32,000 nucleotides of DNA from Acaryochloris marina S15. Lineage in GTDB: Bacteria; Cyanobacteriota; Cyanobacteriia; Thermosynechococcales; Thermosynechococcaceae. A program made the translations under genes and the position numbers. The DNA lies in NCBI RefSeq assembly GCF_018336915.1, contig NZ_CP064923.1:2490001-2522000 (forward strand). Reading direction: 5' to 3'. The notes below the pieces were generated by a model. The model saw nothing but the letters and a program-made list of their open reading frames with translations, had not been told where the DNA came from and made no database searches. Position 1 is the first letter of the stretch. Each line of letters begins with the position of its first letter. Below, in pieces: positions 8,278 through 30,430 of this stretch.

Positions 8278-8351
8278 TTGAATTAACTAAATCGTTTATT
8301 CCTTTTTTTAGTAGTAATAAAATAATCGTAATTTAGTACTAGATATATCAG

Positions 8352-9338: not shown

Positions 9339-9434
9339 TATTTATACTCATCTCAAAAATCCTTGCTAGCCTTGCTTTCAGGCATCAAATTTTTAATTCC
9401 AAACTTTGTGCATTTGCAAAGGTGACATGCTCCC
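9313..9434. mobile_element. 122-bp MITE-like non-autonomous element with 18-bp perfect terminal inverted repeats
   Basis: The left end GGGAGCATGTCACCTTTG (9313-9330) is the exact reverse complement of CAAAGGTGACATGCTCCC (9417-9434). The element is flanked by a 9-bp direct duplication, has no ORF and has an AT-rich interior. Confidence 0.8.
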
Positions 9435-9443
9435 GTGTGCTAT
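9435..9443. repeat. Target-site duplication, right copy (GTGTGCTAT)
   Basis: Identical to 9304-9312. Confidence 0.8.
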
Positions 9444-9474
9444 CTAATCCCTTAGGTACTTCTAGTTAATTGAT

Positions 9475-11325: not shown

Positions 11326-11416
11326 AGCTTATTTTATATTTTCATGATTGCTTTGAACCTACTGAGATCAAAGAATATAAGGGTATTAAACGTTGAAAAT
11401 ATTCTAGTTTTTTGAT

Positions 11417-12610: not shown

Positions 12611-12644
12611 CGCCAATATTTTGTGAAAGTCAATCTCGAGCGAG

Positions 12645-13379: not shown

Positions 13380-13574
13380 TTGATTTCTTTGTTTGAAAAT
13401 TTCTTATGGAGATTTTAGTTTTACTTTAATAATTTTTTTGTATCTATCATCTATTCTTTTTAAGCTGTAAGTTTATTTAGATTAGAGTAAAACTTTAGGC
13501 TTATTAAGCGTGGAAACTCATTATTGTCAAGAGAATTTAAAGCCGATAATAATTTTTTAATGAAAACAAGATTT

Positions 13575-13596
13575 TATGATAAAATTTTTTATCATA
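13575..13596. promoter_or_regulatory. Perfect 10-bp inverted repeat TATGATAAAA-TT-TTTTATCATA (candidate operator)
   Basis: Read directly from the sequence. It lies in the 312-bp AT-rich gap (13380-13691), the largest intergenic gap inside the locus, about 95 bp upstream of the ATG at 13692. Confidence 0.3.
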
Positions 13597-13691
13597 CTTT
13601 ATGCTTAAGATATAGTTTACCTATTTAAATCTAAATATTAGTAATTCTTTGAATGCTTTTCCTACATTTTATTCGAGAACTTTTCTGAGAA

Positions 13692-14816: not shown

Positions 14817-14864
14817 TGTATGTATTTAGAAAGATTAAACTGTCAGTCATGGGAGAAATAGCTA

Positions 14865-15821
14865 ATGGATAGCTCTACCCCTGTTATTTCTGTAATTATG
14901 CCTGTATTTAACTCTCTGCGTTATCTGGACGAAGCAGTTAATAGTATCCTACAGCAGAGTTTTCGAGACTTTGAGTTTTTGATTTTTGATGATGGATCTA
15001 CTGATGGTTCTCTGAAGAAGTTACAGCAATATGTAAACAAAGATAAGAGAATTCAATTGTTTGCCCGAGAGCATAGGGGCTTAACAATATTGCTTAATGA
15101 AGGGCTGAAAAAAGCCAGAGGCAAATATATTGCCCGAATGGACTCAGACGATATTGCCTTGATAAATCGATTTGAGACCCAACTGACATTTTTAGCCCAG
15201 AATCCAGAGTGCGTGGCAGTAGGTTCAGAAATCTTGAGAATTGATCCAGAGGGTTTACCCATTGGTATTAAAGGACAGCCGACCAAACATGAAGAAATTC
15301 TCCAAGCTTTATTGAATGGTAAAGGAGGGATTATTAACCACCCTAGTGCGATGTTTCCTCGTGCAGCCCTTGAAAAAATTGGTGGATATCGTTGCTATTT
15401 GGAACCGGCAGAAGACTTTGATTTATTTGTTCGGCTTTCTGAGATTGGTACGCTGGCAAATCTTCCTCAAGTGTTGATTAAGTATCGCCTTCATTGTCAG
15501 AGAACAACCAATCGTAGAAGGGACATTCAGTTGGAAAAAGTTCGCGAGATTGTACACCAAGCTTGGTTCAAGCGGGGCATGGGTGCTCCACCCAAAGATT
15601 TACTTAATAGCCAGCCAATTTTATCTCCCATAGAAAGTAGAAATCATTGGGCTCAAACAGCCATATCCCAAGGATATTTAGTTACTGGCTTAAAGCATTT
15701 CTTTATTCTCTTAGTCAATAGGCCTTATTCGCTAACTACTTGGAAAATGGTGTTGAGGGCCTTAATGAAGTCCAGTAAACATAGGAACTTAGCCAATTTT
15801 GTAAATTCTGCAGCGAGGTAA
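14865..15821 (+). CDS. Glycosyltransferase family 2 (GT-A)
   Basis: 318 aa. Motifs are ISVIMPVFNSLRYL, LIFDDGSTDGS, ARMDSDDIA and EDFDLFVR. It is colinear with 13692-14816 over the first ~200 aa. Confidence 0.9.
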   Translation: MDSSTPVISVIMPVFNSLRYLDEAVNSILQQSFRDFEFLIFDDGSTDGSLKKLQQYVNKDKRIQLFAREHRGLTILLNEGLKKARGKYIARMDSDDIALINRFETQLTFLAQNPECVAVGSEILRIDPEGLPIGIKGQPTKHEEILQALLNGKGGIINHPSAMFPRAALEKIGGYRCYLEPAEDFDLFVRLSEIGTLANLPQVLIKYRLHCQRTTNRRRDIQLEKVREIVHQAWFKRGMGAPPKDLLNSQPILSPIESRNHWAQTAISQGYLVTGLKHFFILLVNRPYSLTTWKMVLRALMKSSKHRNLANFVNSAAR

Positions 15822-15828
15822 ACATGAG

Positions 15829-16920
15829 ATGGTCCTAGGCGTTAGTATTATTATTTGCTGTTATAACAGTGCTCAGGAGCTACCACAGACCCTTCAGAAT
15901 CTAGTATTACAACAAGTCTCGGCTGACGTGCCCTGGGAAGTGGTAATCATCGATAATGCTTCAACGGATGCGACAGCAAAAGTAGCCCAATCTCTTTGGC
16001 CAAACTCTGCACCTGCTCCGCTCAGGATTGTCCATGAATCTAATTTGGGGCTAATCAATGCACGGTATAGAGCATTATCAGAAGCTCAATATGAGATTCT
16101 CAGTTTTATCGATGATGATAACTGGATTTGTTCAAATTGGGTGCAGACAGTCTCAGAGTTGATGTCTCATAATTCTGAGATTGGGGCATGTGGCAGCCAT
16201 AATATTCCGGCATTTGATGGGGAAAAACCTTGGTGGTTTGACCTAAGTTCTAGAAGTTATGCGGTTGGTAAACAAGGGCCTGATGAAGGAGGAGATATTA
16301 CTGGGTCAAGAGGGAGGTTAATTGGTGCAGGACTAACGATTCGCAAGTGTGCATGGCAACAACTTGTTGATAAAGGATTCAACTCTTTACTCGTAGGTTG
16401 CCAGGGAAAAGCATTGAATCGAGGTGAGGATACAGAGCTAACCTTTGCTCTTGTACTAGCTGGTTGGCGAATATGGTATGAACCCCGGCTCACACTACAG
16501 CATCACTTACAAGCAGAACGGTTGCAGTGGTCTTATTTGCGCCGTTTACGTAGAAATGGAGGAAAAGCAACTATTGGCTTTGATCCTTACCGATTTGCGT
16601 TTGAAGAAAAGGGGAGCGAACATCATATTTCTTTCTGGTGGAATGTCACTAAGAAATCTGATCAAAAATTTGAGCGGCAAGTTTGGTATTTTCAGGTTGT
16701 TTCAGTCTTGAAAGAGTTGCTTTGGACACCTATGAAATTATTTACCTCCTTTTTCCGTCCGATGGAAGGAAGCTTAGATGTATTGAAAATTGAGACTAAA
16801 ATTGGCAGGTTACTAGAGCTACTAAATAATCGAAGAGCATACGATATAAATATTCAGTCTGTTAGAAATGCTGCGTGGAGAAACAAGAATTTAGAGCATA
16901 AAATTGTATTTATGAAATAA
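15829..16920 (+). CDS. Glycosyltransferase family 2 (GT-A)
   Basis: 363 aa. Motifs are VSIIICCYNS, VVIIDNASTDAT, FIDDDNW (DxD) and NRGEDTELTF. Confidence 0.85.
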   Translation: MVLGVSIIICCYNSAQELPQTLQNLVLQQVSADVPWEVVIIDNASTDATAKVAQSLWPNSAPAPLRIVHESNLGLINARYRALSEAQYEILSFIDDDNWICSNWVQTVSELMSHNSEIGACGSHNIPAFDGEKPWWFDLSSRSYAVGKQGPDEGGDITGSRGRLIGAGLTIRKCAWQQLVDKGFNSLLVGCQGKALNRGEDTELTFALVLAGWRIWYEPRLTLQHHLQAERLQWSYLRRLRRNGGKATIGFDPYRFAFEEKGSEHHISFWWNVTKKSDQKFERQVWYFQVVSVLKELLWTPMKLFTSFFRPMEGSLDVLKIETKIGRLLELLNNRRAYDINIQSVRNAAWRNKNLEHKIVFMK

Positions 16921-17021
16921 TTTTTATATTACAAAGAGAATCGTTTAAGAATGGATAAGCAATGGTGATCTTTTAAATTGATCGGCAAGAAAAATTTATA
17001 GAATAGTTAACAAAAAGTGTA

Positions 17022-17996
17022 ATGATTAGAAAAGATAAAGGAGCATTTGTTTTAGTAATTCCTGTTCGAAATCCTCAGGACCAAAAGGTTATTGATTATA
17101 GCTGTATTGAAGCGATATTACATGAAACGGTAAGGTCACTTACCCAGCAATCCTATAGTCACACCCATATTGTTATTGTTTGCCACAAAATCCCTTCATG
17201 GGGAGGGACAATAGGAAACAATGTGACTTTTTTAAATGTCTCAAATATCCCAGCATTCCCTGCCAATAAAAATCCTGTAAGAGTAGATAAGGGATTGAAA
17301 TATATTATTGGTATTTTATATGCAAAAAATAATCTCAATCCAGATCTAGTCATGCCGATGGATGCAGATGACTATGTGAATGTTAAGCTTGCCAGTAAAT
17401 TGGTAAAAAAAGATAAATTCAATAGATTCAATAGTAATAGAGATGGATATATCTTAAAGAAAGGGCTACATGTAAACCTCCAAATTGCTGCTGACTACTC
17501 AGTGAATTATGAAGTGGCGTATTTAGTTGAGGAATTTGATCGAACCTGTGGATCTTGTAGAGTTTTTAAGACAGATGCTCTAATGAAATCAATAGAAACA
17601 ATTGATGTTGATATAGCTAGTCGATTTAGTTACTGGCCATTGCGATCGCAAAATGCATCGGTGACTGTTCCTGCTGAGCCAGTAATGTGGCTCAGTGATA
17701 TTTCTCAGCCACATTACTTAAGTGAAAATAATATTGTCAATATTTTAGGTAGGCATATCAAGCAAAGTCCATACTTTAAGTTGGCACCCCTTAACTTCGT
17801 AGGTGCAGCAAAAGGATGTGGCCATGGCAACCATGATGGCCCTAAACAAGGTGAGGTTCATATGGATAAAATTATTGGCAATATTTCTGCTCAACAATTT
17901 TGCAATAACTTTGGGATACTCAATAAAAACTATCTTAAACCAACCCACAAAAAAATAAACCTGGGTTTTCTTACGAATAAATTTCCCTTGTTTTAG
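17022..17996 (+). CDS. Divergent GT-A-like putative glycosyltransferase
   Basis: 324 aa. It has an N-terminal beta-strand motif FVLVIPVRNP and a DxD-like LVMPMDADDYV at the spacing expected for a GT-A fold. The rest is unrecognised. Confidence 0.4.
   Translation: MIRKDKGAFVLVIPVRNPQDQKVIDYSCIEAILHETVRSLTQQSYSHTHIVIVCHKIPSWGGTIGNNVTFLNVSNIPAFPANKNPVRVDKGLKYIIGILYAKNNLNPDLVMPMDADDYVNVKLASKLVKKDKFNRFNSNRDGYILKKGLHVNLQIAADYSVNYEVAYLVEEFDRTCGSCRVFKTDALMKSIETIDVDIASRFSYWPLRSQNASVTVPAEPVMWLSDISQPHYLSENNIVNILGRHIKQSPYFKLAPLNFVGAAKGCGHGNHDGPKQGEVHMDKIIGNISAQQFCNNFGILNKNYLKPTHKKINLGFLTNKFPLF
17642..17649. repeat. HIP1 octamer GCGATCGC
   Basis: Exact match. Confidence 0.95.
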
Positions 17997-18134
17997 ATTT
18001 TTGTATGCAAACTAGCTTAATTTTTTAATCTCAAGACATGAGAGTATTTATAACTATTTACTATGCTATTTTTTGTGGATTGAAGTTGTTATTTTCAAAT
18101 ATTAAAAATTATAAAAAATTGACCTATATAAATC

Positions 18135-19112
18135 TTGGTGAATAGAGAAGTGGATATGCATGAAAATATCTTAAGTTCTCAAAGAGACACAACAATCAAA
18201 CCGATTCAATGGTCTAATGTCTTGAGTTGGGCTACTGAAACTGCAAAACAAGATCGGCACTCATATCAATCTCACCCGAGATCACACTCTATCCAACGAT
18301 TAAAGGCGATGTGGACGCCTAACTTACATCAACCGTTGTTTATCATTGGTTCTCCTCGTTCTGGCACAACGTTCTTAGGAGCTTGTATTGCTGAATTACC
18401 AGAGATCTCTTATCATTTCGAACCGGTAGCATCTAAAGCTGCAGCTCGTTATGTTCACGAGGGACAGTGGGAATTCAGTAAAGCTAAGAGCTTCTATCGA
18501 GCGGTGTATGCCTGGTTGATGCGACTTCATTTTGATGCAGATTTGCGTTTTTCGGAGAAAACCCCCCGAAACTGCTTTCTAATCAACTTTTTATACCAGA
18601 TATTCCCTGACGCCCAGTTTATCCATATTATTCGAGATGGTAGAGATGCTGCCCTCTCCCATAGTCAGAAACCATGGTTACAGGCCGCTTCTGCCCAGTC
18701 CGGCAAGCGAGAGTCGAGTGGCTATCGCTACGGCCCCTATGCTCGTTTTTGGGTGGAACCTGAAAGAAAAGATGAGTTCGAAACTACAAGTGATATACAC
18801 CGCTGTATCTGGGCCTGGAGACGCCATACTGAAAGCATTCTGGCACAATCCAAAAACTTACCAAGAGCTCAATATTATGAACTTCGTTATGAAGCTTTCG
18901 TCACTTGTCCCCATGAAGAGGCTGATCGCTTGCTGAACTATCTGAATATTGTTCAATTTAGCTCTCGAGAACGCCTACATGAAGCTTTTGCTCGTGCTAA
19001 TTCCCAGTCGGTGGGGAGATGGAAAGATGCATTGACCCCTGAACAGGTAAAACAGATAGAACAGGAGGCAGGTCCGATGCTTCAAGCATTGGGGTATCTG
19101 CAGGGATCATGA
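18135..19112 (+). CDS. Sulfotransferase (P-loop type), type 3 of 3, first of a tandem pair
   Basis: It has a 5'-PSB loop FIIGSPRSGTTFLG and a 3'-PB IHIIRDGRDAALS. The ORF-track start is a TTG at 18135. An ATG at 18156 (MHENIL...) is the more likely start. Confidence 0.85.
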   Translation: MVNREVDMHENILSSQRDTTIKPIQWSNVLSWATETAKQDRHSYQSHPRSHSIQRLKAMWTPNLHQPLFIIGSPRSGTTFLGACIAELPEISYHFEPVASKAAARYVHEGQWEFSKAKSFYRAVYAWLMRLHFDADLRFSEKTPRNCFLINFLYQIFPDAQFIHIIRDGRDAALSHSQKPWLQAASAQSGKRESSGYRYGPYARFWVEPERKDEFETTSDIHRCIWAWRRHTESILAQSKNLPRAQYYELRYEAFVTCPHEEADRLLNYLNIVQFSSRERLHEAFARANSQSVGRWKDALTPEQVKQIEQEAGPMLQALGYLQGS

Positions 19113-20065
19113 AAAACGCAATAAATGTATCTAAAACAATTCAAGATCCTATTTTCTTAGTGGGTTGTCCCCGCTCAGGTACAACTCTCCTTCAGCAAAT
19201 GTTGGATGCCCATCCTGATATTGCGATCGCACCCGAAACTTTTTTTATCCGAAACTTTTGGTTAAAGCAAGACAAATATGGAAACTTAGGAGAAGACCAT
19301 AATTACTACCAGCTCGTAGAAGATATTATTTCGTTGCCAGAATTTCAAGAAATGGAATTAGATCCAGAGGTCTACCGAGCAGCTGCTTGGAAATCTTCGC
19401 GAAGTTACCCTTTGCTTTTACGTCTTCTCTTGGAACAATTTGCCCACAAAAGGGACGTAGCTATCGTTGGGGAAAAGACACCAAATCATTTGCTGTACAT
19501 ATCAATACTCCAGCAATTTTTCCCTACTGCCCGATTCGTTCATATTGTCCGGGACCCCCGAGCTGTTGTTGCATCCTGGCAAACGGTCCCTTGGACAACG
19601 GGAACCCTAGCAGGTGATGCAGCAGTGTGGCGACGTTATATGTCAACAGCAAGAGGATGCCCAGTTGCTTTGAAGCCCTCACTATATACACTTCATTACG
19701 AAGCCCTCATTGAGACCCCAAAAATCACCTTAAAAGCCCTGTGCCAATTTCTCCAAATTCAGTTCGAACCAGCCATGCTGGCGTATCATCAACAACCATC
19801 TCATACTGTTAATGCTAAGCGCGAACCCTGGAAAATTAATGCAAAAAAGCAACTAAGCCAAACCTCCTTGAGCCGTTGGCAATCCACATTATCCAACTCG
19901 ATGATTGCTGAAATTGAGGTGGTTGTTTGGCCAGAAATGATGCATTTTGGCTATAGTCCCATCACGAACCGTGTAGCCCTCGCCACTACAAAAACTTTTA
20001 AGATCGTGCAAAGTAAGTTTCAGAGGGCGATATCGCGCTTGAAATCTCCAACCCTTGGGATATAG
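19109..20065 (+). CDS. Sulfotransferase (P-loop type), type 3 of 3, second of the tandem pair
   Basis: 318 aa. Motifs are FLVGCPRSGTTLL, GEKTPNHLLY and VHIVRDPRAVVAS. Its ATG overlaps the upstream stop (ATGA at 19109-19112). Confidence 0.9.
   Translation: MKNAINVSKTIQDPIFLVGCPRSGTTLLQQMLDAHPDIAIAPETFFIRNFWLKQDKYGNLGEDHNYYQLVEDIISLPEFQEMELDPEVYRAAAWKSSRSYPLLLRLLLEQFAHKRDVAIVGEKTPNHLLYISILQQFFPTARFVHIVRDPRAVVASWQTVPWTTGTLAGDAAVWRRYMSTARGCPVALKPSLYTLHYEALIETPKITLKALCQFLQIQFEPAMLAYHQQPSHTVNAKREPWKINAKKQLSQTSLSRWQSTLSNSMIAEIEVVVWPEMMHFGYSPITNRVALATTKTFKIVQSKFQRAISRLKSPTLGI
19223..19230. repeat. HIP1 octamer GCGATCGC
   Basis: Exact match. Confidence 0.95.
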
Positions 20066-20067
20066 AG

Positions 20068-21357
20068 ATGAAACTTGGATATTTGCATATTGGTTCTCCT
20101 GAACATGGCGTATGTCGCTATGGACGTTTACTGGCGACAGAGGCGCGCGGATTGTCTACTCTTTCTGTCATAGAAGCTGAGGTAGAGCTAACCCTAGATC
20201 ATCGGCAAAACCGAGCAGAAATCATTAAAGCTGCAAGACATCTCTCATCGGTGGATATTGTTCATCTTCAGTACAGCATAAAAAATAACAAAGGCTTGTG
20301 GGGACTAGGTTGGACCCAGCTGACTCATCTTCGGCTTTTTAGACAGTACTGTGCACAACCACTAGTCGTCACTCTTCATGATGTTTATGACTTACCCCCC
20401 AATCCGAGCAAAATTCCTGGTTATGTCTCTCGCATCCTGCACCGGTGCTCACCCAATCTTCTGGCCAAGGGCACTCCAAATAAATCTCTATCTCAGGCAG
20501 AGAAACTTTCCTTAGCGAATCTGCTTGACTCAATTCGACAATACCGTTGGCTTGTGCAGGGAGAAATACTCAGAATCCCTGGTGACATCTCATTGTATTG
20601 GTTATTGAGACAGGTCAAATTGGTCTTTGTCTCTTCTGAAGAAGAGAGAAGACGATTGAGCCAGGGTGATATAGGTTCTACAACAGTGATTCCGCACTTT
20701 GTTGAACAGCGATCGCCGACTCTTTCCAAGAAAGAAGCCCAGCAGGCATTAAACTTGCATGGATTTCAGGTCATTACACTTCTCGGATTTATTCATGAAC
20801 GTAAGGGGCACCAGTTACTACTGAAAGCGCTTTCCCAACTCCCAGAACAGGTCATAGTGGTTTTTGCTGGGGGAGCGAGTCCTGGCAATGAACATTTTCT
20901 CAAAGACCTACTAGCCCTGGCAAAGACAGATGGCGTTGAGCATCGCTTACGTATCACGGATTATTTGTCTGAAGTTAATTTAGAGCGCTATTTGATGGCC
21001 ACAGATTTGGCTATTTGCCCATTTCAATCCTTTGCTGCCTCAGGATCACTCTCAACTTGGATCTCTGTTGGTCGATCGCTATTAGCTTTTAACCTTCCAC
21101 AAATTGCTGAATATAATCGGATCGAGCCAGATTCAATTAAAACGTTTCAACCCTACACTCCAGAAGCACTAGCGAGCGAGATTAAGCACTTATTATCCGC
21201 AGGGATTAAGGCAGAAGATATAGCTGTCGATCGGCTTAAACAAAGACTGTTATTGCCAGTCACCTTTAATCAACATCTAGTTCGTTATCAGCAAGTGGTA
21301 ACTGCCCTTAACAAGACGATTGTTCGTCCTACCCACGGCATTAAGCCTAGCTATTGA
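20068..21357 (+). CDS. Divergent GT-B-fold glycosyltransferase-like protein
   Basis: 429 aa. It has the GT1/GT4-like layout ITLLGFIHERKGHQLLLKAL ... VVFAGG ... ICPFQSFAASGSLSTWISVGRSLLAFN. The E-x7-E region is degenerate (Ser/Gly in place of Glu). The ATG is 2 nt after the upstream stop. Confidence 0.55.
   Translation: MKLGYLHIGSPEHGVCRYGRLLATEARGLSTLSVIEAEVELTLDHRQNRAEIIKAARHLSSVDIVHLQYSIKNNKGLWGLGWTQLTHLRLFRQYCAQPLVVTLHDVYDLPPNPSKIPGYVSRILHRCSPNLLAKGTPNKSLSQAEKLSLANLLDSIRQYRWLVQGEILRIPGDISLYWLLRQVKLVFVSSEEERRRLSQGDIGSTTVIPHFVEQRSPTLSKKEAQQALNLHGFQVITLLGFIHERKGHQLLLKALSQLPEQVIVVFAGGASPGNEHFLKDLLALAKTDGVEHRLRITDYLSEVNLERYLMATDLAICPFQSFAASGSLSTWISVGRSLLAFNLPQIAEYNRIEPDSIKTFQPYTPEALASEIKHLLSAGIKAEDIAVDRLKQRLLLPVTFNQHLVRYQQVVTALNKTIVRPTHGIKPSY
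20709..20716. repeat. HIP1 octamer GCGATCGC
   Basis: Exact match. Confidence 0.95.
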
Positions 21358-21379
21358 GTTTGAAAGAGGCAAATCACTT

Positions 21380-22558
21380 ATGCATTTCTCTTCATCTATA
21401 AAGCATGCATCTAGGCAGAGCCAAGCGGCTAATGAATCAACTGGGAACAGATCTGATCTGAAAATGACTGTTTACTTTGCACCCCAGTATTTGTCCATTA
21501 ATCCCTATCAAAAGCAGTTGGCTAGCTCCCTAAAAGATCTGGGAGTTCGAGTTGAGGGAGTGAATGGGATGAAGGCATTTTTACCCACAGCAATCAAATC
21601 TAGGAATCTGAACGTTGTCCATCTGCACTGGTTACATCAATACTATCGAGCCCCGGAGTTCAGAAATTTCCCTATCCTCAAGGTTTTAAGATTCCCTTTT
21701 GCATTATTGACCCTTATAAAATTTCTGTTGGGCTTAATTTTTTTGAGAATTGCGGGTGTAAAGCTTGTCTGGACTGCCCATAATCTTGAGAGCCATGAGG
21801 CTTTATTCCCTCTGTTAGACTACATTTGCAGACTGGTTGTTGTACATATATCAGATTCTGTAATTGCTCACGGTCATGCTGCTAAGTCTGCAATTGCCAA
21901 AAGATATCGGCTCAAAAAGTTAGAGAAGATACTGGTAGTTCCCCATGGAAATTACATTCAGTCCTATGACAACTCAATGGCTCAGCCTGAAGCCCGTCAG
22001 GTTTTAGGTATCGAAAATACCAGTCTTGTCTTTCTCTTTTTAGGCTTAGTGAGACCCTATAAAGGAGTAGGAGAATTAATTGAAATTTTTAATCAGTTAG
22101 AGCACCCTGATAAAACACTCATCATTGCTGGAAAAACCTTAAACGATACATTCTCTCAAGAGATCAAAGCCAAAGCTGCAACCCAAACTAACATCAAGTT
22201 CATTCCTGGCTTCGTCCCTGATGAGCGAATTCAAATATACATGAATGCCAGTGATGCTGTCGTTTTCCCTTATCGTGATGTTTTAACATCAGGCGCGGCG
22301 ATCTTAGCGATGTCTTTTGGTAAACCTTGTGTTGCTCCAAGAATGGGTTGTCTCCAAGAGATTTTAGATACTGCTGGAGCTTTTTTGTACGAACCTGATC
22401 AAACTGATGGTTTGTTGAAGGCAATGGAGCAAACAGCTTACAAAAAAACCGATTTGCTATCTATGGGAGCGCATAATCGGTGTTTAGCAGAACAATGGGA
22501 CTGGACTACTATTGCGAAGCAAACCCTCGAAATATATTTACAGAAGTCCAATGCTTAA
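21380..22558 (+). CDS. GT-B-fold glycosyltransferase (group 1-like)
   Basis: The ORF track opens at a TTG at 21320, overlapping the upstream gene by 38 nt. I prefer the ATG at 21380, which is preceded by GAAAGAGG; an ATG at 21464 is also possible. Motifs are FLFLGLVRPYKGVGELI, IIAGK and VFPYRDVLTSGAAILAMSFGKPCVAP. Confidence 0.7.
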   Translation: MHFSSSIKHASRQSQAANESTGNRSDLKMTVYFAPQYLSINPYQKQLASSLKDLGVRVEGVNGMKAFLPTAIKSRNLNVVHLHWLHQYYRAPEFRNFPILKVLRFPFALLTLIKFLLGLIFLRIAGVKLVWTAHNLESHEALFPLLDYICRLVVVHISDSVIAHGHAAKSAIAKRYRLKKLEKILVVPHGNYIQSYDNSMAQPEARQVLGIENTSLVFLFLGLVRPYKGVGELIEIFNQLEHPDKTLIIAGKTLNDTFSQEIKAKAATQTNIKFIPGFVPDERIQIYMNASDAVVFPYRDVLTSGAAILAMSFGKPCVAPRMGCLQEILDTAGAFLYEPDQTDGLLKAMEQTAYKKTDLLSMGAHNRCLAEQWDWTTIAKQTLEIYLQKSNA

Positions 22559-22610
22559 TGGATAAAGAGGCTTCAGGCTGAATATTTAATGTTTATGAAT
22601 ATGCATTGCT

Positions 22611-23528
22611 ATGTCTAATACTGTTACTCATCCAGCCATCAAGATCGCAAAACCAGAAACCATTCCATTTGTTTCAGTCATCATACCTGTGTTCAATGAT
22701 TCAGAGCGGCTGTTTCAATGTTTGCAAGCATTAGAAAATCAGACTTATCCTGGTAAAACGTATGAAGTAATTGTGGTCGACAATGCTTCTGATGATGATG
22801 TCAGTGCTGTGGTAGACCAGTTTCCCTATGCTTCCACGACCTTGGAACTCCAGCAGGGGTCTTATGCGGCTCGCAATACTGGGATTGCGATCGCAAAAGG
22901 AAACATCCTAGCCTTCACAGATGCAGACTGTATACCAGCCCCCGACTGGATTGAAAAAGGAGTTCAGAGTTTACGCGACGTTCCGAACTGTGGTCTGGTA
23001 GCTGGCAGAATTGAATTCAGCTACCAAAACCCCCAGCAGCCGAACTCCATAGAACTCTGCGATAGTGTGCTGTACTTACAGCAAGATTTGTATTTAAAGC
23101 ATGCCAAGTTTGGCGCTACGGCAAATGTCTTTACCTACAAATCAGTCTTTGCCGAAGTCGGTTTATTTGATCAAATCCTGAAATCTGGGGGGGACTATGA
23201 ATGGGGGCAACGGGTTTTTGCCGCAGGGTATCAGCAGGTCTATTCACCAGAGGCTTATGTCTATCACCCAGCTCGATATTCCTTTGAACAGCTCTACAAG
23301 AAAATCCTCAGAACAACCCGAGGTCCTTACGATTTGAGTCAGTCTAGTACCTACTCCCTGAAGAAATTTATCAAAGATATCGCTAGAGATGTTTTCCCCC
23401 CTTTCAAAACCTTTGGTCGGGCGCGGGTAGATACCGTCCAACAAAAACTGCGATTGTGGTTTGTGTTGACCTTTATCAAGCATTTAACGGCTTTAGAGCG
23501 GGTAAAGGCACAACTCAAGTTTGGCTAG
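22611..23528 (+). CDS. Glycosyltransferase family 2 (GT-A)
   Basis: 305 aa. Motifs are VSVIIPVFNDSERL, VIVVDNASDDD and FTDADCIP. Its last 111 codons lie inside unit 1 of the tandem duplication. Confidence 0.9.
   Translation: MSNTVTHPAIKIAKPETIPFVSVIIPVFNDSERLFQCLQALENQTYPGKTYEVIVVDNASDDDVSAVVDQFPYASTTLELQQGSYAARNTGIAIAKGNILAFTDADCIPAPDWIEKGVQSLRDVPNCGLVAGRIEFSYQNPQQPNSIELCDSVLYLQQDLYLKHAKFGATANVFTYKSVFAEVGLFDQILKSGGDYEWGQRVFAAGYQQVYSPEAYVYHPARYSFEQLYKKILRTTRGPYDLSQSSTYSLKKFIKDIARDVFPPFKTFGRARVDTVQQKLRLWFVLTFIKHLTALERVKAQLKFG
22887..22894. repeat. HIP1 octamer GCGATCGC
   Basis: Exact match. Confidence 0.95.
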
Positions 23529-24011
23529 TCGTCTTTAAGTGTGATGCCAGTCCGGGGGAATGAAAACGTGACTATGTAATTAGCCCATGTTCAGAAGAAA
23601 TGGACTATGAATGGGGGCAACGGGTTTTTGCCGCAGGGTATCAGCAGGTCTATTCACCAGAGGCTTATGTCTATCACCCAGCTCGATATTCCTTTGAACA
23701 GCTCTATAAGAAAATCCTCAGAACAACCCGAGGTCCTTACGATTTGAGTCAGTCTAGTACCTACTCCCTGAAGAAATTTATCAAAGATATCGCTAGAGAT
23801 GTTTTCCCCCCTTTCAAAACCTTTGGTCGGGCGCGGGTAGATACCGTCCAACAAAAACTGCGATTGTGGTTTGTGTTGACCTTTATCAAGCATTTAACGG
23901 CTTTAGAGCGGGTAAAGGCACAACTCAAGTTTGGCTAGTCGTCTTTAAGTGTGATGCCAGTCCGGGGGAATGAAAACGTGACTATGTAATTAGCCCATGT
24001 TCAGAAGAAAT
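23192..24011. repeat. Tandem duplication, 2 x 410 bp (23192-23601 and 23602-24011)
   Basis: Block-by-block comparison gives 409/410 identity. The only difference is C23297 versus T23707 (TAC to TAT, synonymous Tyr). Each unit holds the GT2 3' end, the 58-bp intergenic region and the first 15 nt of the downstream lipoprotein gene. Confidence 0.95.
23600..23938 (+). pseudogene. Duplicated C-terminal fragment of the GT2 gene (112-codon ORF with a junction-created ATG)
   Basis: The protein is identical to the last 111 residues of 22611-23528. The ATG (23600-23602) spans the duplication junction: AT comes from codon 5 of the lipoprotein gene and G from the GT2 sequence. The fragment lacks the GT-A catalytic N-terminus. 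Confidence 0.8.
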
Positions 24012-25127
24012 CGCTATAAACGGTATTTCATCTCATTGTGCATTCTGCTAGGCATATTCGGACTATTAGCCTGTCAGCAGGTTAGCAGCAGCTCCTCATC
24101 GACGCCTCAGGCTCGCGTTGAGTCTCGTCCAGTGGACTATGGCCACAATGCGCCAACCTCTAGGGATAAATTTCTCTGGCCGTTTTCCTCAGACTCCATA
24201 TGGAATATGCCCATTGGCTCTGATGCTCAATATAAGCCAGCCCGCATTAAGTCAGCCCCCCGTTTGCGATCTGATGAAGAGTATTTCTTTGAGCTTAAAG
24301 GGGATGATCCTCGTCAACCAGTTTATGCACCAGGTTCGTGGAAAAAACGCTGCAAAGGGAAAAAGAAGTCCATGAAGATTTCCCTTCCGGTTCCAGACGA
24401 TCTGATCATTCCCGATGCGGAGAAGGGGAAGACACCGAATAATGCATCGGCATTTCTGATGCCTGATGGCAAGACATTGGTGCAGCTTGAACCGCTGGCA
24501 CGCTGTGAGCCAGGAGGTCCCATTTATGGCTGGCGGTATTTTCCCAACGTTGATATCTACACTGCAGGCATTGGTGGTGCTCACTTTGGATCAGGACTAT
24601 CTTCTATCGGTGGCTCAATCCGAGAAGGGGAATTGGTCGATGACGCCCCGATTCGACATGCGTTAAAGATTAATTTGTGGGGTAAAAAATATCTTTACTA
24701 TTCTAAGCGCATCCCTGGATATCGTTGGCCAGCAGATCGTGCTGATAAGTATGCAGCCAAACAGTATGGGGGCAAGAATCCTGAGTTGGTTCAAGGTGCC
24801 TTATTAGCGATTCCCCCTGATCTCTCAGTGTCCAGCCTGGGACTCAAAACGCAACCGGCCAAAAAGCTTTTTCATGCGTTCCAAGACTATGGGGCTTACG
24901 TGGTCGATGATACGGACTGGAACGCCCATGCTATCCCTTTGGAGCATAGTGTACTGAAAGAGTTTCGACGGACCTATGGCTATTCCTTCAACACTTCAGA
25001 AGGTCCTTTCTTCGATGATGTGATTAAGCTGTTTACCGAGCTTTCGGTCGTATCTAACAATACGCCTGAGTCAGTGGGCGGAGGTGGCACCCCTAGAGCG
25101 CCATTGGCACCGCCCATTCGCAATTGA
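23997..25127 (+). CDS. Putative lipoprotein carrying an unassigned ~320-aa conserved domain (paralog of the central domain of 25132-28389)
   Basis: 376 aa. A signal peptide with a lipobox-like LLAC (Cys26) is followed by a Ser-rich linker SSSSSSTP. Residues ~58-374 align colinearly with residues ~465-789 of the RTX protein. Confidence 0.75.
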   Translation: MFRRNRYKRYFISLCILLGIFGLLACQQVSSSSSSTPQARVESRPVDYGHNAPTSRDKFLWPFSSDSIWNMPIGSDAQYKPARIKSAPRLRSDEEYFFELKGDDPRQPVYAPGSWKKRCKGKKKSMKISLPVPDDLIIPDAEKGKTPNNASAFLMPDGKTLVQLEPLARCEPGGPIYGWRYFPNVDIYTAGIGGAHFGSGLSSIGGSIREGELVDDAPIRHALKINLWGKKYLYYSKRIPGYRWPADRADKYAAKQYGGKNPELVQGALLAIPPDLSVSSLGLKTQPAKKLFHAFQDYGAYVVDDTDWNAHAIPLEHSVLKEFRRTYGYSFNTSEGPFFDDVIKLFTELSVVSNNTPESVGGGGTPRAPLAPPIRN

Positions 25128-25131
25128 CAGC

Positions 25132-28100
25132 TCAATCAATATATTTAACAAACGAACCGTCTAGGTTAAAGGAATTTGCACCTTTAATAATCGCAACGAT
25201 TTCATCAGCTTGATTCGTAATGCCATCTCCATTGGTATCCAAGTATATTTCTGCCCCTTTATTACTGGTACCGACAACATACTGTTGGGCAGATCCTAGA
25301 AGGAGAAGGGTGTCTTTATCCTTACTGAAGTCATTAATTTGGGCAAATTCATCTTGCTTCAGAGGGGTACTACGATTACTTTGTAAAAACTCGACTCGAC
25401 CGACGACATCAAATGTGTCGGAACCTGCCCCTCCTGTCAGGCTGTCTTTACCCGAACTGCTAACTAGGACATCCCCCTGTTTCCCGCCGATTAGCTGATC
25501 ATGGCCTTTACCACCATGTAAATGGACGGTGCCTTGAAATTGGGATGCATCTAGTTTGTTATTGCTATCCCCACCACTGAGAATGACATGTTCAATACTA
25601 TCGAGGGTATCGGTCCAGGTGCCAATCAGCTTGTTCTCCGTCAGCTCAAGGTCAATATCATCTGACTCGATCACGGTGTCAAAGCCAGTACCACCCATTA
25701 AGCGATCTTTACCGGTTCCTCCCGTCAGATGATCGTCGCCCTTGCCCCCTTCCAGGATGTCACTATAGGCACCTCCATCTAAGTAGTCATTTCCATCTCC
25801 CCCTAGTAAATGATCGGAGCTGGTATCACCAATGAGGTGATCATTGCCTTTACCGCCATCGAGGGTATCTTTACCCGACCCACCGGTGATGAAATCATGT
25901 CCACCTCGTCCTTGGATCAGATCATTCCCTTTTTTGCCATCCATCCGGTTGGCTTGGTCATCCCCCTCAAGATTATTTGAGTCGGCGTTGCCGATAAATG
26001 CTGGCGGGGCAGCGACATCAAAGTCTGGAGCTAGGGGAGTACGGGGTGTTCCACCGCCACCGATGTTATCTAAGGCATTGTTGTCAATGACATGCAGGGC
26101 CGAAAATAACTGCATATAGTCATCATAAAAAGGACCACTGTTGTCGGTAAAACTAAAGCCATAGTGGCTGGAAAATTCTTGCGTGACCCCTTTCTCAACT
26201 GCAATAGCATGGGCATCCCATCCGGTATCGTCGGCCAGATAAGCCCCATAGTCCTGAAGGGCATAGAAAAGTTTTTTGCCAACCTCGGTTTGAATCCCTA
26301 ATTTATCTGGCGTCATGTCCGGTGGAATAGCTAGCAAGCTGCCGTTGAGTAGTTCTGGGGTAGCACCCGCATAGGTCTGTGGGCTGATATGGGTGTCTGC
26401 TTTCACAGCAGGCCAACGATATCCTAGTCCTCCACCTGGGCCTTTGGTATGAGAAAAATACTTTTTCGTCCAAAGATTCACTTTTAGGGCATGGCGGATG
26501 GGATCATCACCAATGAGTTCACCCTGTCGAATGGTGCCACCGATGGAGGATAACCCAGACCCAGCATGGGCCCCCTCGATACCCGTTCCATAAATATCCT
26601 CATATTTGGCAACATCCAGGGTATAGGGTAAGCGTTGGCCGTAGACGAAATCACGGTTGCGATCGCGAGTTAATGCATTCACCTGAACTAGGGTGCGGCC
26701 ATCGGGCATTAAAAAAGCCGCAGAATTGTTAGGGGTCTTGCTATTGGTCGAATCAGCAATCAATAAATCATTAGGTAAGGGCAGGGATATTCCTTGATAG
26801 GTGCTGCCAGTGGTGCGACCTGGTCCCCAAGTTCCCTGGTTATAGAGGGGTTGTAACGGGTCATCCCCCTTAAGGATGTAAAAGTGATCCACATCTACTG
26901 TGGCGTTTTTTGCCTTTTCAATCTTGGCATCCACATATTCAGCATTAGACCCAATGGGGGTATTCCATATCGAGTTGGCAGCAAAAGGCCGCAGGGTTAC
27001 ATCCCGTGTCGCCACAGTTCCTCCTGTATTGGTTGTAGAGCTAGTAGTTTTAGAACCTTGAAGCAACCCACTGCCTTGAATGGCTAAAAAACTAACAACT
27101 TCGCTCGTATGGGAAGTTTCCGCATCCGCAGTGGTGTCTTCTTCTACCTTGACTTCTACAGAAGTATTGTGAAGATTACGATAACGAACCCCTGCAGAAT
27201 CGCCTCCATCGTATGAGGCAAGGGACGCTAAAAAATTTGGAGTGGAGGTGAAACCGGAAAAATCAATGGATGCCCAATCATGGGTAATGGTATCTCCTGT
27301 TTGCCCAACTTGATACGCTAACCCTCCCCACGTTCCTGACCCTGACTCAATCGCTAACCATCCCACCGACTCTGACACATGACCAGAATATTTTTTCTTT
27401 TCTTCCTCTTCCATGCCCACCTGAAAGCCACTGACTGTCGTGGCTTGCTGCCGCGTGCGCACAAAATCTGAACCATCCGCAGTTTGCACTTGACTGAAAA
27501 CGATGGGGGAATCCGAAAATTTTTGATTAAAGTTAACGGTTTCAAATCTACTGGTGACCAAGCCACTGGTATCTAGGGTGCCAACTTCTAGCTTTGTGCC
27601 ATCTTCTAAAACCCATGACCCAGCTTCCAAGACGATATAACTAATATCCTCAGCTACATGTTGGCCATCATGATTACTGGGTTCTTGGATATAGAGTTCG
27701 AAACGATTACTTTGAATGTTGTCAATTCGAACTGTTGCAGGCTGTCCACCATTAAAACTCAGGGTTTGGGCGAAAATGACAGGGTTTATGTAGTCATGCT
27801 GAAGTTGGATGGTCTGTTTAAGATGGGTCAGACCAGAAATTTGCCCTACTTCACCTAGTGTGGCAATGGATGTTGCTGACCTAGGAACTGCAGACTGTAT
27901 GGGAGAAGTGGCTAAAGCTGTCCCCGAAACAATCGGTGCAGGTGTCTGATAAAATATCCTGACATTTCGAAACAAGCTATCCGCCTTGGGGTGTGGGACA
28001 TCTTGATCATTGCCAAAGGTTAAATAGGCGATATTGCCCGTGAAAAACTCGCCTACAGGAATGCGGTAAGTGAGCCAGTCACCGATAACAGTCTGATAAT

Positions 28101-28389
28101 GGTTGAACTGGCTGATTCCCCAAGGTTGACTACCAAATAATTGAAAACTTTGGGTCGGACTCAGAATATTATCAGTATCAAATCCAATACTGTGAATTTC
28201 TCCTTGAACATTGCTTTTAAAGTCAAACTCTAAAACAGTACTTTTCGTAATTTGGTAAGGCAGCTTGATTTTTTTCCAACCATTCCCAGATAACTGCAAT
28301 ATATTGCCATTGGATAGAGTGGAAAAGCTCAGTTTCTGATCTTGAGAGCCTCCATAGGATTCAATCTGGTAATTATTGAAATTCAGCAT
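25132..28389 (-). CDS. Large multidomain RTX-repeat (hemolysin-type Ca-binding) secreted protein
   Basis: 1085 aa with no N-terminal signal peptide. Residues ~1-150 look like a beta-sandwich/CBM. Residues ~192-445 are three internal ~85-aa repeats. Residues ~465-789 are the domain shared with the neighbouring lipoprotein. Residues ~806-1000 are GGxGxD nonapeptide repeats (GGSGKDTLDGGKGNDHLIG, GGDGNDYLDGG, GGKGDDHLTGGTGKDRLMGGTGFD). The C-terminus is acidic. Confidence 0.9.
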   Translation of the reverse strand: MLNFNNYQIESYGGSQDQKLSFSTLSNGNILQLSGNGWKKIKLPYQITKSTVLEFDFKSNVQGEIHSIGFDTDNILSPTQSFQLFGSQPWGISQFNHYQTVIGDWLTYRIPVGEFFTGNIAYLTFGNDQDVPHPKADSLFRNVRIFYQTPAPIVSGTALATSPIQSAVPRSATSIATLGEVGQISGLTHLKQTIQLQHDYINPVIFAQTLSFNGGQPATVRIDNIQSNRFELYIQEPSNHDGQHVAEDISYIVLEAGSWVLEDGTKLEVGTLDTSGLVTSRFETVNFNQKFSDSPIVFSQVQTADGSDFVRTRQQATTVSGFQVGMEEEEKKKYSGHVSESVGWLAIESGSGTWGGLAYQVGQTGDTITHDWASIDFSGFTSTPNFLASLASYDGGDSAGVRYRNLHNTSVEVKVEEDTTADAETSHTSEVVSFLAIQGSGLLQGSKTTSSTTNTGGTVATRDVTLRPFAANSIWNTPIGSNAEYVDAKIEKAKNATVDVDHFYILKGDDPLQPLYNQGTWGPGRTTGSTYQGISLPLPNDLLIADSTNSKTPNNSAAFLMPDGRTLVQVNALTRDRNRDFVYGQRLPYTLDVAKYEDIYGTGIEGAHAGSGLSSIGGTIRQGELIGDDPIRHALKVNLWTKKYFSHTKGPGGGLGYRWPAVKADTHISPQTYAGATPELLNGSLLAIPPDMTPDKLGIQTEVGKKLFYALQDYGAYLADDTGWDAHAIAVEKGVTQEFSSHYGFSFTDNSGPFYDDYMQLFSALHVIDNNALDNIGGGGTPRTPLAPDFDVAAPPAFIGNADSNNLEGDDQANRMDGKKGNDLIQGRGGHDFITGGSGKDTLDGGKGNDHLIGDTSSDHLLGGDGNDYLDGGAYSDILEGGKGDDHLTGGTGKDRLMGGTGFDTVIESDDIDLELTENKLIGTWTDTLDSIEHVILSGGDSNNKLDASQFQGTVHLHGGKGHDQLIGGKQGDVLVSSSGKDSLTGGAGSDTFDVVGRVEFLQSNRSTPLKQDEFAQINDFSKDKDTLLLLGSAQQYVVGTSNKGAEIYLDTNGDGITNQADEIVAIIKGANSFNLDGSFVKYID
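26659..26666. repeat. HIP1 octamer GCGATCGC
   Basis: Exact match. Confidence 0.95.
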
Positions 28390-29119: not shown

Positions 29120-30430
29120 CTATTGCCTTAATATCTCATCGAATGTGTTCTTCATTGATTTAGCCCAGATTCGGTAGCCTTGTGGAGATAAGTGTAGATA
29201 ATCAGGCATTACTGTTTTAGAAATTTTGCCATCAGGTTCTAGAAAACTTGGCCCCATATCCAGAAATCGAATGGTCGAACCATTGTCAAGCTGCTCAATT
29301 TGTCTATTAATAGCCTGAATTTTTTTTCTGTTGGGCGTATGGGGTTGCTTGCCCGATGGAAGAATTCCAAGGAGGAGGATTTTAGTCTGTGGGTTTTTGA
29401 TCCGAATTTTGGCAACGATTTTCTCAATTCCTGTCGCAATACGGGCTGAACTAAAAGAATCTTGCCAGAGATTATTAACGCCAATATTGAGAACGACTAA
29501 CTGAGGTTGTATGTCGTCAAATAGGCCATGGTCAATTCGCCAAAGAACTTGTTGTGTGCGATCGCCACCAATACCAAAATTTGCGGCGCCAAGGTTGCCA
29601 TAGTGTTGTTGCCAGAGCTTTTTATGCTTTCGCCACCCGCGGGTAATCGAGTCACCTAAAAAGACAATATTGATTTGGCGTTTCTGAGTTTGTTTGAGAT
29701 GTTGCTGATGGAGCTTCAACCATGCTTGGGGAAATTTTGGATAGTGACCGGGCATGGGAACAGTGGGATCTTGCTGTTTCGGAGTGACAGTGGGTTTTGG
29801 TTGTTTCGGAGCAGATGCTTTTTCAAGATGATCCGCTATGTTTTTGATGTTTGAGCCAGTCAGTTTGACTTCATCTAACCAGGCTTTCCCCTGACCTTCT
29901 ATCAGCAAAACGATTCCAAACTTATGAGTTTTGGGAGGTAAGATAACCTCCTGAGAGAAGGAACTCCAATCCTGAGTATTGTGGAGATACTTGACTTGCT
30001 GAAATTGGAGCGGGCGTGATTGTTTAGAAAAAGACTGAATGGCAATATTGACTTTGACCTTCCCTGTGGATTTAGCAAAACCGCTGACAGTGAAAGACTG
30101 ACGAGATGCCCCCTTGATCAGTTGAAATGCCTGTCCTTTAGCAGGGCCAGACGTACTAGCCACCTTTAGGGCAGCAGGGCCCTGTTTAAAAATTTGAGTA
30201 TCCCGTGTAATGGAGATCTTGCCTTTTCCCACCCACTGATGATGCCAATAGTCAGGGACCGTCGTTCCTAGAGTCATCGCACCATTACGTAGGGTGATGG
30301 GTTGTCTGCCCTTCTCTTTTGCCGAGGGGGGTGGCGATTTTTGCGCCTGAGAAGATTGAAGTGATATGCAGCCTGCTAGAGTTACTAACCCCATGATCAG
30401 CGAGGCTCCTATTGCTCTATGTCGATACAT
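29120..30430 (-). CDS. Lipoprotein with CBM-like N-terminal domain and SGNH/GDSL hydrolase domain (PAF-acetylhydrolase-Ib-like carbohydrate esterase)
   Basis: 436 aa. The signal peptide has a canonical lipobox LAGC. SGNH block I is IVFLGDSITRGW, block II is NFGIGGDRTQQVLWRI, block III is VVLNIGVNNL and block V is PDYLHLSPQGY. Confidence 0.85.
   Translation of the reverse strand: MYRHRAIGASLIMGLVTLAGCISLQSSQAQKSPPPSAKEKGRQPITLRNGAMTLGTTVPDYWHHQWVGKGKISITRDTQIFKQGPAALKVASTSGPAKGQAFQLIKGASRQSFTVSGFAKSTGKVKVNIAIQSFSKQSRPLQFQQVKYLHNTQDWSSFSQEVILPPKTHKFGIVLLIEGQGKAWLDEVKLTGSNIKNIADHLEKASAPKQPKPTVTPKQQDPTVPMPGHYPKFPQAWLKLHQQHLKQTQKRQINIVFLGDSITRGWRKHKKLWQQHYGNLGAANFGIGGDRTQQVLWRIDHGLFDDIQPQLVVLNIGVNNLWQDSFSSARIATGIEKIVAKIRIKNPQTKILLLGILPSGKQPHTPNRKKIQAINRQIEQLDNGSTIRFLDMGPSFLEPDGKISKTVMPDYLHLSPQGYRIWAKSMKNTFDEILRQ
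29558..29565. repeat. HIP1 octamer GCGATCGC
   Basis: Exact match. Confidence 0.95.

Follow-up and report, generated by a model that had tools for sequence, protein, structure and literature searches.

The two succinoglycan glycanases of Sinorhizobium meliloti, both of glycoside hydrolase (GH) family GH16, are exported by separate routes, ExoK having a signal peptide and ExsH carrying RTX-type (repeats-in-toxin) repeats. ExoK is described as a beta-1,3-1,4-glucanase (PMC1403797), ExsH is secreted by PrsDE, and the acetyl and succinyl groups of the polymer affect the cleavage (PMC1403797, PMC4916376). PrsDE also secretes PlyA and PlyB of Rhizobium leguminosarum. In the mannuronan C5-epimerases, which have a right-handed beta-helix, periplasmic AlgG stands beside the RTX-bearing, type-I-secreted AlgE1-7 of Azotobacter. 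The biosynthetic operons of PslG (GH39), PelA (GH166), BcsZ (GH8) and AlgL (polysaccharide lyase (PL) family PL5) each hold a single gene for an extracytoplasmic enzyme. Here we consider a domain of about 320 residues that is present twice, in a predicted lipoprotein and in an RTX protein, at the end of an exopolysaccharide (EPS) locus of Acaryochloris marina S15 (contig NZ_CP064923.1, positions 2,490,001 to 2,522,000; this whole stretch of 32,000 nucleotides is referred to as the window). The lines below give the two genes and the two copies of the domain.

23997..25127, + strand: lipoprotein gene, 376 aa, the final gene of the plus-strand EPS array (from the list of open reading frames, ORFs)
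25132..28389, - strand: RTX protein gene, 1085 aa, convergent with the lipoprotein gene, with a 4-bp gap between the stop codons
24159..25124, + strand: shared domain copy 1, lipoprotein residues 55-376 (BLASTP, AlphaFold2), holding the Cys119-Cys170 pair
26017..27009, - strand: shared domain copy 2, RTX protein residues 461-791 (BLASTP), with both cysteines replaced (T526, D576)

The window has the same logic as ExoK/ExsH and PlyA/PlyB: a lipoprotein copy, an RTX copy and an SGNH protein of the acetyl-esterase type. ExoK/ExsH would be the closest analogue, in deployment logic only, as the shared domain has no Pfam or PDB-fold match and hence is not GH16 by profile (the ExDxxE motif was not searched for), and the window has no PrsDE-like genes. 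The families of PslG, PelA, BcsZ and AlgL have Pfam models and solved folds, none of which matches the shared domain, and none of these enzymes is paired with an RTX-secreted paralogue. With AlgE/AlgG the locus has in common a polysaccharide-acting module deployed in the periplasm and as an RTX protein, but neither such a fold nor a Pfam match was found for the shared domain, and, apart from a lyase side activity in AlgE7, the epimerases alter their polymer without cutting it. Depolymerases that an EPS locus supplies in a Sec and an RTX form are already a known type of system; the catalytic family itself appears new, with no counterpart among solved structures. We lean slightly towards the view that the shared module is the catalytic domain of an uncharacterised extracytoplasmic carbohydrate-active family, most likely an endo-acting glycanase (hydrolase or lyase), made in two forms and cutting the polymer of the adjacent locus.

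Residues 55-372 of the lipoprotein and 461-788 of the RTX protein align colinearly (BLASTP; 174/328 identities, 53%; 70% positives; 10 gap positions; E 4e-116). The earlier note, made from the letters alone, had described both ORFs with the sizes and coordinates confirmed here, and had placed the domain at residues ~58-374 and ~465-789 with about half of the positions identical, which proved accurate to a few residues. The blocks SIWN-PIGS, KTPNN..AFLMPDG.TLVQ, GSGLSSIGG.IR.GEL, PIRHALK, GYRWPA, LLAIPPD, QDYGAY and GGGGTPR.PLAP, which it had listed, are all found in the BLASTP alignment.

The same note had been unable to match the domain to any named family, and the searches agree. Pfam-A and NCBIfam gave zero families for the shared domain (the lipoprotein was searched at E up to 1); the only Pfam matches of the RTX protein, HemolysinCabind and a weak H_lectin, both lie outside it. 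No PDB sequence was matched by the single sequence or by a 49-sequence profile. The AlphaFold2 model of the domain, built on the 49-sequence alignment, has a predicted local distance difference test score (pLDDT) of 96.7 and a predicted TM-score (pTM) of 0.94, with no residue below 70. A Foldseek search of this model against 350,542 PDB chains gave a best E of 1.3, hence none at 1e-3 or better, and no match to a lysozyme-like or double-psi beta-barrel (DPBB)-like fold. A tblastn search of the PLSDB plasmids gave no match. No description of the family was found in the literature on cyanobacterial sulfated EPS, EPS-degrading GH families, Gordonia phage glycosidases, Acaryochloris sulfotransferases, Paenibacillus GH families and ExoK/ExsH.

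If the two forms had arisen by a recent tandem duplication of one gene within the locus, the RTX-linked copies would not form a separate older lineage; this origin was therefore rejected. The RTX-linked copies are 59-71% identical among themselves and 51-56% identical to single-domain forms, and, being closer to each other than to the latter, they represent one of two old paralogous lineages kept together.

Conservation was assessed over 289 domain copies (lipoprotein numbering). H221, Y301, P245 and five glycines are conserved in 100% of them, and R56, P62, S67, W69, N70, P72, G74, A77, R209, E212, W244, A246 and Y257 in at least 98%; D250 follows with 96%, and D157, R169, H196 and K224 with 92-95%. 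Copy 2 in the RTX protein keeps all of the near-invariant residues. The clusters DDP-IRH and DDT-W-AHA, put forward earlier as catalytic, survive in part. The histidine of 'IRH' is the invariant H221, but the preceding D215 and D216 are conserved in only 37% and 34% of copies, so the first cluster reduces to H221; in the second, D304 (89%), D305 (87%) and W308 (81%) are better kept than the histidine, H311 (55%). Judged by conservation, R56, S67, N70, R209, E212, H221, D250, Y257 and Y301 are better candidates for catalytic residues. Such a pattern would allow the carboxylate pair of a hydrolase (E212/D250) or, as in a lyase, a His/Tyr pair serving as base and acid, with Arg and Asn as neutralisers.

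The family is large. A word-indexed search gave 1,845 homologous proteins at E up to 1e-3, an exhaustive search gave 2,199 clusters at 50% identity (773 at E up to 1e-30), and at least 567 family places were found among GTDB species genomes. Among the 120 matches listed, none is informatively named, and the three with Pfam matches have fused SGNH or 3-keto-disaccharide-hydrolase domains. Named members come from Acaryochloris, Nostocales, Chroococcidiopsis, Leptolyngbyaceae and Nodosilinea, and, outside cyanobacteria, from Paenibacillus swuensis and P. roseopurpureus. The distribution is patchy, with multiple copies in sheath- and EPS-rich cyanobacteria. Two to four tandem single-domain paralogues are seen in several Nostocales genomes (loci L025, from Iningainema tapete, L013, L014, L020, L027, L030, L035, L036, L042 and L052). 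Three or four tandem domain copies are also encoded by a Dinobryon sp. transcript (P0121 and P0270; MMETSP and EukProt). The organism to which it is attributed is a chrysophyte that feeds on bacteria, and the copies could be a eukaryotic acquisition or a bacterial contamination of the transcriptome.

The family extends to phages. The profile of PHROG 17388 matches both copies of the window (E 1.4e-11 and 5.8e-13), and the viral library (BFVD) was the only structural library to give Foldseek matches: the 'minor tail protein' of Gordonia phage Guillaume (E 3.8e-19, TM 0.76, 23% identity) and further uncultured-phage proteins, one of them annotated 'parallel beta-helix repeat'. With tblastn we obtained 20 Gordonia phage records, mostly annotated as minor tail protein, some as hypothetical and one as 'glycosylhydrolase' (the record fields shown cite no evidence). 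The family profile spans the whole domain in Guillaume gp9 (residues 240-538, E 1.5e-35) and in Stormageddon gp18 (128-427, E 4.5e-32); these PHROG 17388 proteins are true whole-domain homologues. They are about 26% identical and keep most of the highly conserved residues, with the motifs R..PF..SIWN.PIG, GG.IR..EL, I.HAL, G..WPA..D, Y.G, LQ.YG.Y..D and GG.G.R.P. In these 640-750-aa phage proteins, themselves uncharacterised, the domain is embedded and lacks the cysteine pair and His196. The Guillaume gene sits in the structural-gene region, between the portal and the capsid protease. Virion-borne enzymes of this kind are typically depolymerases of surface glycans.

Domain fusions were counted in 118 multidomain relatives by two Pfam scans, the top 25 families of each scan being considered. 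The most frequent partners are fn3 (n = 23), SGNH/GDSL esterase (n = 13), F5/8C discoidin (n = 12) and the sorting tail of the type IX secretion system (T9SS; Por_Secre_tail, n = 8), which implies that Bacteroidota are among the carriers. They are followed by FG-GAP (n = 7), RTX repeats (n = 6), ricin-B (n = 5), PA14 (n = 4) and carbohydrate-binding modules (CBMs), namely CBM6 (n = 7), CBM35 (n = 4), CBM9 (n = 3), CBM4_9 (n = 2) and CBM2 (n = 1); 3-keto-disaccharide-hydrolase-like domains were seen in two relatives and an M23 peptidase in one. None of LysM, SH3, PG_binding and SPOR is among the families shown. Decoration by several CBM and lectin classes is a hallmark of a catalytic rather than an accessory module. 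In several relatives, such as P0137 and P0146, the shared domain is accompanied by CBMs or fn3 only, and thus it should be the functional, presumably catalytic, module of these proteins.

The architecture of the two proteins and their partner genes is given by the following features.

269..23528, + strand: EPS biosynthesis array, for a Wzy-dependent, sulfated, probably acetylated polymer (Pfam/NCBIfam profiles)
23997..24074, + strand: signal peptide and lipobox L-L-A-C26, lipoprotein residues 1-26 (direct reading of MFRRNRYKRYFISLCILLGIFGLLAC, with QQ following)
25135..25389, - strand: C-terminal ~85 residues of the RTX protein past the repeats, a presumed uncleaved type I secretion signal judged from its position
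25390..25998, - strand: RTX nonapeptide repeat region, residues ~798-1000 (Pfam and NCBIfam matches)
27025..27879, - strand: three H-type-lectin-like beta-sandwich repeats, residues ~171-455 (AlphaFold2, pLDDT >90)
27880..28389, - strand: N-terminal 170 residues of the RTX protein, beta-rich, pLDDT <50, no Pfam match
29120..30430, - strand: SGNH/GDSL esterase lipoprotein, 436 aa, with an N-terminal beta-rich extension, a likely accessory acetyl-esterase

Both proteins had been read earlier as a lipoprotein and an RTX protein, and both readings are supported. The lipoprotein begins with a basic stretch, a hydrophobic core and a lipobox that agrees with the pattern [LVI][ASTVI][GAS]C, which predicts lipidation; a lipobox-like motif is present in 32 of the 114 single-domain homologues, and the others shown have an N-terminal hydrophobic segment. 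The best match among the GTDB species genomes is the A. marina MBIC11017 orthologue, with 91% identity and the same position; two Acaryochloris metagenome-assembled genomes likewise have orthologues in this position, and an identical lipoprotein is found on a public contig with the same neighbour genes. In three Acaryochloris genomes, as in the window, the gene closes the sulfated EPS operon. In the RTX protein, HemolysinCabind is matched in five stretches (Pfam, E 1.2e-25), and eight GGxGxDxUx nonapeptides were found by regular expression at residues 836-994. Its N-terminus, MLNFNNYQIESYGG, has no hydrophobic segment on direct reading.

The lectin-like repeats of the RTX protein gave Foldseek probabilities of 0.87-0.99 and TMt of 0.43-0.61 (2cgy, 4q56, 3wmp, 4mtm), with E of 0.07-0.8 for a multi-domain query; the matches are Helix pomatia/aspersa agglutinin, the coral lectin SLL-2 and pyocin or phage fibre tips. 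The Pfam H_lectin model (PF09458) scores 18-21.9 bits in the RTX protein, below the cut-off of 24, and homologues of the module carry PF09458. From the model, these repeats presumably serve as a carbohydrate-binding or targeting module. The triple module is a mobile cassette, which is elsewhere (40-60% identity) fused to CAP, GH28, GH11, Calx-beta, PA14, multicopper oxidase, S8 subtilase and M12 domains.

The two forms also differ in cysteines. The RTX protein has none in its 1085 residues. Cys119 and Cys170 (domain positions 65 and 116) are both present in 224 of the 289 copies, loss usually being joint; both are absent in all eight RTX-linked copies and both present in 224 of the 281 others. 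This pattern would fit a periplasmic disulfide in the Sec-exported form and an unfolded passage of the RTX form through a type I system. Such a system may be encoded elsewhere. The exporter of the EPS array (9475-11325), the only exporter of the ATP-binding cassette (ABC) class in the window, was considered for this role and rejected: it is a full-length member of the HepA family (941.7 bits, cut-off 725), scores 323 bits with the HlyB model (cut-off 725) and is therefore not the type I secretion system (T1SS) of the RTX protein. HepA is the exporter family of the heterocyst envelope polysaccharide; here the gene is part of a Wzy/Wzc-type cluster, and the genome is of the Acaryochloris type, unicellular and without heterocysts.

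The third gene of the conserved set encodes an SGNH lipoprotein (Lipase_GDSL_2, E 1.8e-29, 103.9 bits against a cut-off of 32.9), in which the FLGDSIT block and the lipobox L-A-G-C were read directly. Its nearest solved relatives, platelet-activating factor (PAF) acetylhydrolase Ib (E 3e-36) and sialate O-acetylesterase (E 1e-14), are acetyl-specific esterases. The SGNH gene adjoins the RTX gene in Acaryochloris loci, the whole trio being kept in A. marina MBIC11017 and in two Acaryochloris metagenome-assembled genomes; an SGNH gene is also a neighbour in Paenibacillus. The fused SGNH domains of other relatives were tried as orthologues of this protein and rejected at 25% identity over 130 aa.

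Taken as a glycanase, the shared module could act at two places. The lipoprotein, exported by the Sec and Lol pathways and stabilised by its disulfide, would encounter the polymer at the membrane or in the periplasm; there it could adjust the length of chains, set them free or dispose of failed polymer. The cysteine-free RTX form would leave the cell via a type I system encoded elsewhere and fold with Ca2+ outside; held on the glycan by its three lectin-like repeats, it could reshape the matrix or make it looser. O-acetyl groups in the way of cleavage would be taken off by the neighbouring SGNH lipoprotein. Two features fit this role: the SGNH protein is of acetyl-esterase type, and a hexapeptide acyltransferase is among the products of the locus. 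Of the earlier proposal of a new polysaccharide-acting module in two forms, the unassigned domain, the lipid-anchored Sec and likely type-I RTX forms and the carbohydrate context stand, and catalysis and cleavage are the parts that we would suggest rather than assert.

The EPS array itself contains a Wzc-like tyrosine kinase, Wzy, many glycosyltransferases (GTs) of families GT2 and GT4, five sulfotransferases, the hexapeptide acyltransferase and the HepA-family ABC exporter. We compared it with the best 80 cyanobacterial loci of the family, for which ORFs were called, the neighbours were grouped by BLAST and the representatives of each group were scanned with Pfam. By raw counts, at least one polysaccharide-synthesis gene lies within 10 kb of the domain gene in 50 of these loci, at least two in 45 and at least three in 41. 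The neighbours at this distance include GT2 (n = 29), the Wzt ABC ATPase (n = 23), GT8-like (n = 22), two clusters of GT4 (n = 20 and n = 17), GT10 (n = 19), a Wzx-type flippase (n = 10), GHL10 (n = 10) and a GlfT2-like transferase (n = 7). At least four cluster types can be distinguished: Wzy/sulfated; Wzt with Glf and GlfT2; Wzx flippase with GT2/GT4; and GT8/GT10/GT4 with Wzt.

The expected co-occurrence with sulfotransferase-rich EPS loci holds only for Acaryochloris-like loci (3 of the 80 carry sulfotransferase genes) and for one metagenomic lineage; elsewhere the domain accompanies other polysaccharide clusters or none. A specificity of the domain for sulfated EPS was hence rejected. In the metagenomic cyanobacterium (L087/L088, 71% identity) a sulfated EPS operon that includes a pyruvyl transferase, GT2/GT4 and three sulfotransferases ends in the single-domain gene, and a convergent RTX form is again present, with CBM6 and CBM35 pairs instead of the lectin repeats.

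UDP-galactopyranose mutase occurs within 10 kb in 9 of the 80 loci, at a median distance of 248 bp, and is immediately adjacent in six. Such loci include L008, L012, L025, L054, L060, L063 and L065, and GlfT2-like transferases are found close by; among the fusions, modules of galactose-binding type (discoidin, ricin-B, H-lectin, CBM35) are seen repeatedly, and Gordonia walls contain galactofuran. There is in this a weak hint that some family members act on galactan or galactofuranan.

Outside cyanobacteria, the copies of Paenibacillus swuensis and P. roseopurpureus sit in typical sugar-utilisation loci, where two ABC permeases are accompanied by a sensor kinase and an AraC-type regulator; one of the loci has in addition a melibiase-like GH, the other SGNH-fn3, SASA and MR_MLE genes.

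A wider claim, which we consider evenly balanced, is that the domain defines a new carbohydrate-active family, with a fold absent from the PDB and outside the existing GH, PL and carbohydrate esterase (CE) clans. Cyanobacteria would process their own envelope and matrix glycans with it in periplasmic and RTX-secreted forms, and it would have been taken up by attackers of glycans, namely Paenibacillus, bacteria with T9SS-tailed proteins, actinophages (in the virion) and possibly a bacterivorous chrysophyte. The catalytic machinery would be E212/D250 or H221/Y301 with R209/N70, with a mechanism structurally undescribed.

If the module modified the carbohydrate without cleaving its backbone, it could be an esterase or de-acylase (with a Ser67-His221-Asp triad), a sulfatase-like or ketal-removing enzyme, or an epimerase, again periplasmic and extracellular. 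This is the best of the alternatives, and we still consider it unlikely. An invariant Ser, His and Asp/Glu are on hand; the polymer is heavily decorated (by five sulfotransferases and an acyltransferase here, by a pyruvyl transferase in L087); the epimerases provide a precedent for a periplasmic and an RTX form; and the CBM and context evidence fits all of this as well as it fits a glycanase. However, phage virion proteins and the Paenibacillus uptake loci need depolymerisation, and the shared-domain protein is the only large secreted candidate in the latter. A dedicated SGNH esterase is a recurrent partner, so a second esterase would be less economical, and a sulfate-specific role is unlikely as sulfotransferases accompany the domain in few lineages.

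Hydrolysis of peptidoglycan, with the lipoprotein as a periplasmic remodelling enzyme, the RTX form as a bacteriolytic weapon, the phage protein as a virion lysin, the Paenibacillus protein as a lytic exoenzyme and the SGNH protein acting like Ape, we find improbable. It would account for a range that spans Gram-negative and Gram-positive bacteria and phages, for the position of the Guillaume gene among phage structural genes, for the single M23 peptidase fusion and for four copies in the transcript attributed to bacterivorous Dinobryon; pairings of an SGNH esterase with a cleaver of glycan strands are known for peptidoglycan. We ranked it down because neither scan showed peptidoglycan-binding modules among its top 25 families; CBMs, discoidin, ricin-B and PA14 are found instead. 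The Paenibacillus copies have AraC-type regulators, a melibiase-like GH and the rest of a sugar-uptake locus around them, and it is these contexts, together with the absent binding modules, that speak most strongly against a cell-wall target. Moreover, the cyanobacterial copies cluster with glycosyltransferases, flippases and Wzt, not with cell-wall synthesis (a Mur-ligase-like neighbour in 6 loci excepted), the family occurs patchily and often in multiple copies in cyanobacteria rich in sheath and EPS, and the model resembles no lysozyme-like or DPBB-like fold.

Equally improbable, to our mind, is a non-catalytic module that binds glycans, mediates adhesion or builds the sheath or matrix, and that would be a receptor-binding domain in phages. 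The domain has no known catalytic signature, the general layout of the RTX form is like that of RTX adhesins, and the phage homologues are annotated as tail proteins. Against this, the domain is itself decorated with several CBM and lectin classes, its invariant charged and aromatic residues persist down to 26% identity, and it is the sole candidate depolymerase in two Paenibacillus utilisation loci. Finally, a protease or another hydrolase of surface proteins, only coincidentally linked to EPS loci, would use the invariant Ser and His and would agree with the S8 subtilase immediately adjacent in 6 loci, but is very improbable given the CBM-rich architectures, the sugar-uptake loci and the EPS-operon membership, all unexpected for a protease, and no match to a peptidase family in Pfam, NCBIfam or the profile search of the PDB.

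Several points weigh against the glycanase that we favour. The word 'enzyme' is drawn from context and conservation, no similarity to any enzyme of known mechanism having been found in Pfam, NCBIfam, the PDB or by Foldseek. The neighbourhood counts are raw, without a random-locus background, many loci share ancestry and the ORF calling is crude; by the same counts, 30 of the 80 loci have no polysaccharide-synthesis gene within 10 kb, such a gene is immediately adjacent in just 14 of 79, and the commonest neighbour is an ABC1 kinase (39 of 80). The M23 peptidase of relative P0222 hints at cell-wall targets for some members. The fused SGNH domains are only 25% identical over 130 aa to that of the window, so this link holds at the superfamily level only. 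Also, Pfam and NCBIfam scans of the window proteins showed no T1SS genes (ABC, membrane fusion protein, TolC), the HlyD-like family being likewise absent from the Pfam scans.

Other features of these loci may be mentioned. In the 39 loci with the ABC1-kinase gene, the latter is divergent from the adjoining domain gene and accompanied by a conserved 124-aa ORF. In the window, the lipoprotein gene starts 59 bp past the end of a GT2-derived ORF that lies in a duplicated segment. A 410-bp unit is tandemly repeated at 23192-23601 and 23602-24011 with one mismatch (at 23297); it spans the 3' third of the GT2 gene (22611-23528), the spacer and the first five codons of the lipoprotein gene, and creates a 112-aa ORF (23600-23938) with the same sequence as the GT2 C-terminus. 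No such repeat is present in the orthologous locus of A. marina MBIC11017; it is a genuine duplication specific to the strain or else an artefact of the assembly. On the other side, an ISKra4-family transposase (30637-31989; 269.6 bits against a cut-off of 205) ends the conserved locus just past the SGNH gene.

Within the array, the ORF at 11417-12610 (397 aa) belongs to a prenyltransferase/terpene-cyclase-like alpha/alpha-toroid family that is kept in cyanobacteria and sometimes fused to GT2 or a methyltransferase; its consideration as a conventional alpha/alpha-toroid glycanase of the locus was thus unsupported. A 324-aa ORF (17022-17996) has only a sub-threshold GT2 match (E 0.0066) and no PDB sequence match. 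A promoter and terminator scan gave promoter-like sites at the frequency expected from shuffled sequence, none of them tied to function.

Sulfated and acetylated exopolysaccharides of cyanobacteria are of ecological and industrial relevance. We found no described enzyme for cutting them in the literature, and no glycanase is named in the description of the synechan xss cluster (PMC8205485). A family of about 2,200 clusters, rich in CBMs, with a near-perfect predicted structure and no solved relative is a strong candidate for a new CAZy family. If the glycanase reading is true, it would give a practical means of adjusting the length of EPS chains and of breaking up the biofilms or sheaths of cyanobacteria. 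The phage and Paenibacillus homologues suggest that the module is used by attackers of these or similar surface glycans, which may aid the annotation of phage depolymerases. For the cyanobacteria themselves, the disulfide-bearing Sec form beside the cysteine-free RTX form would be a natural example of one module adapted to two export routes.

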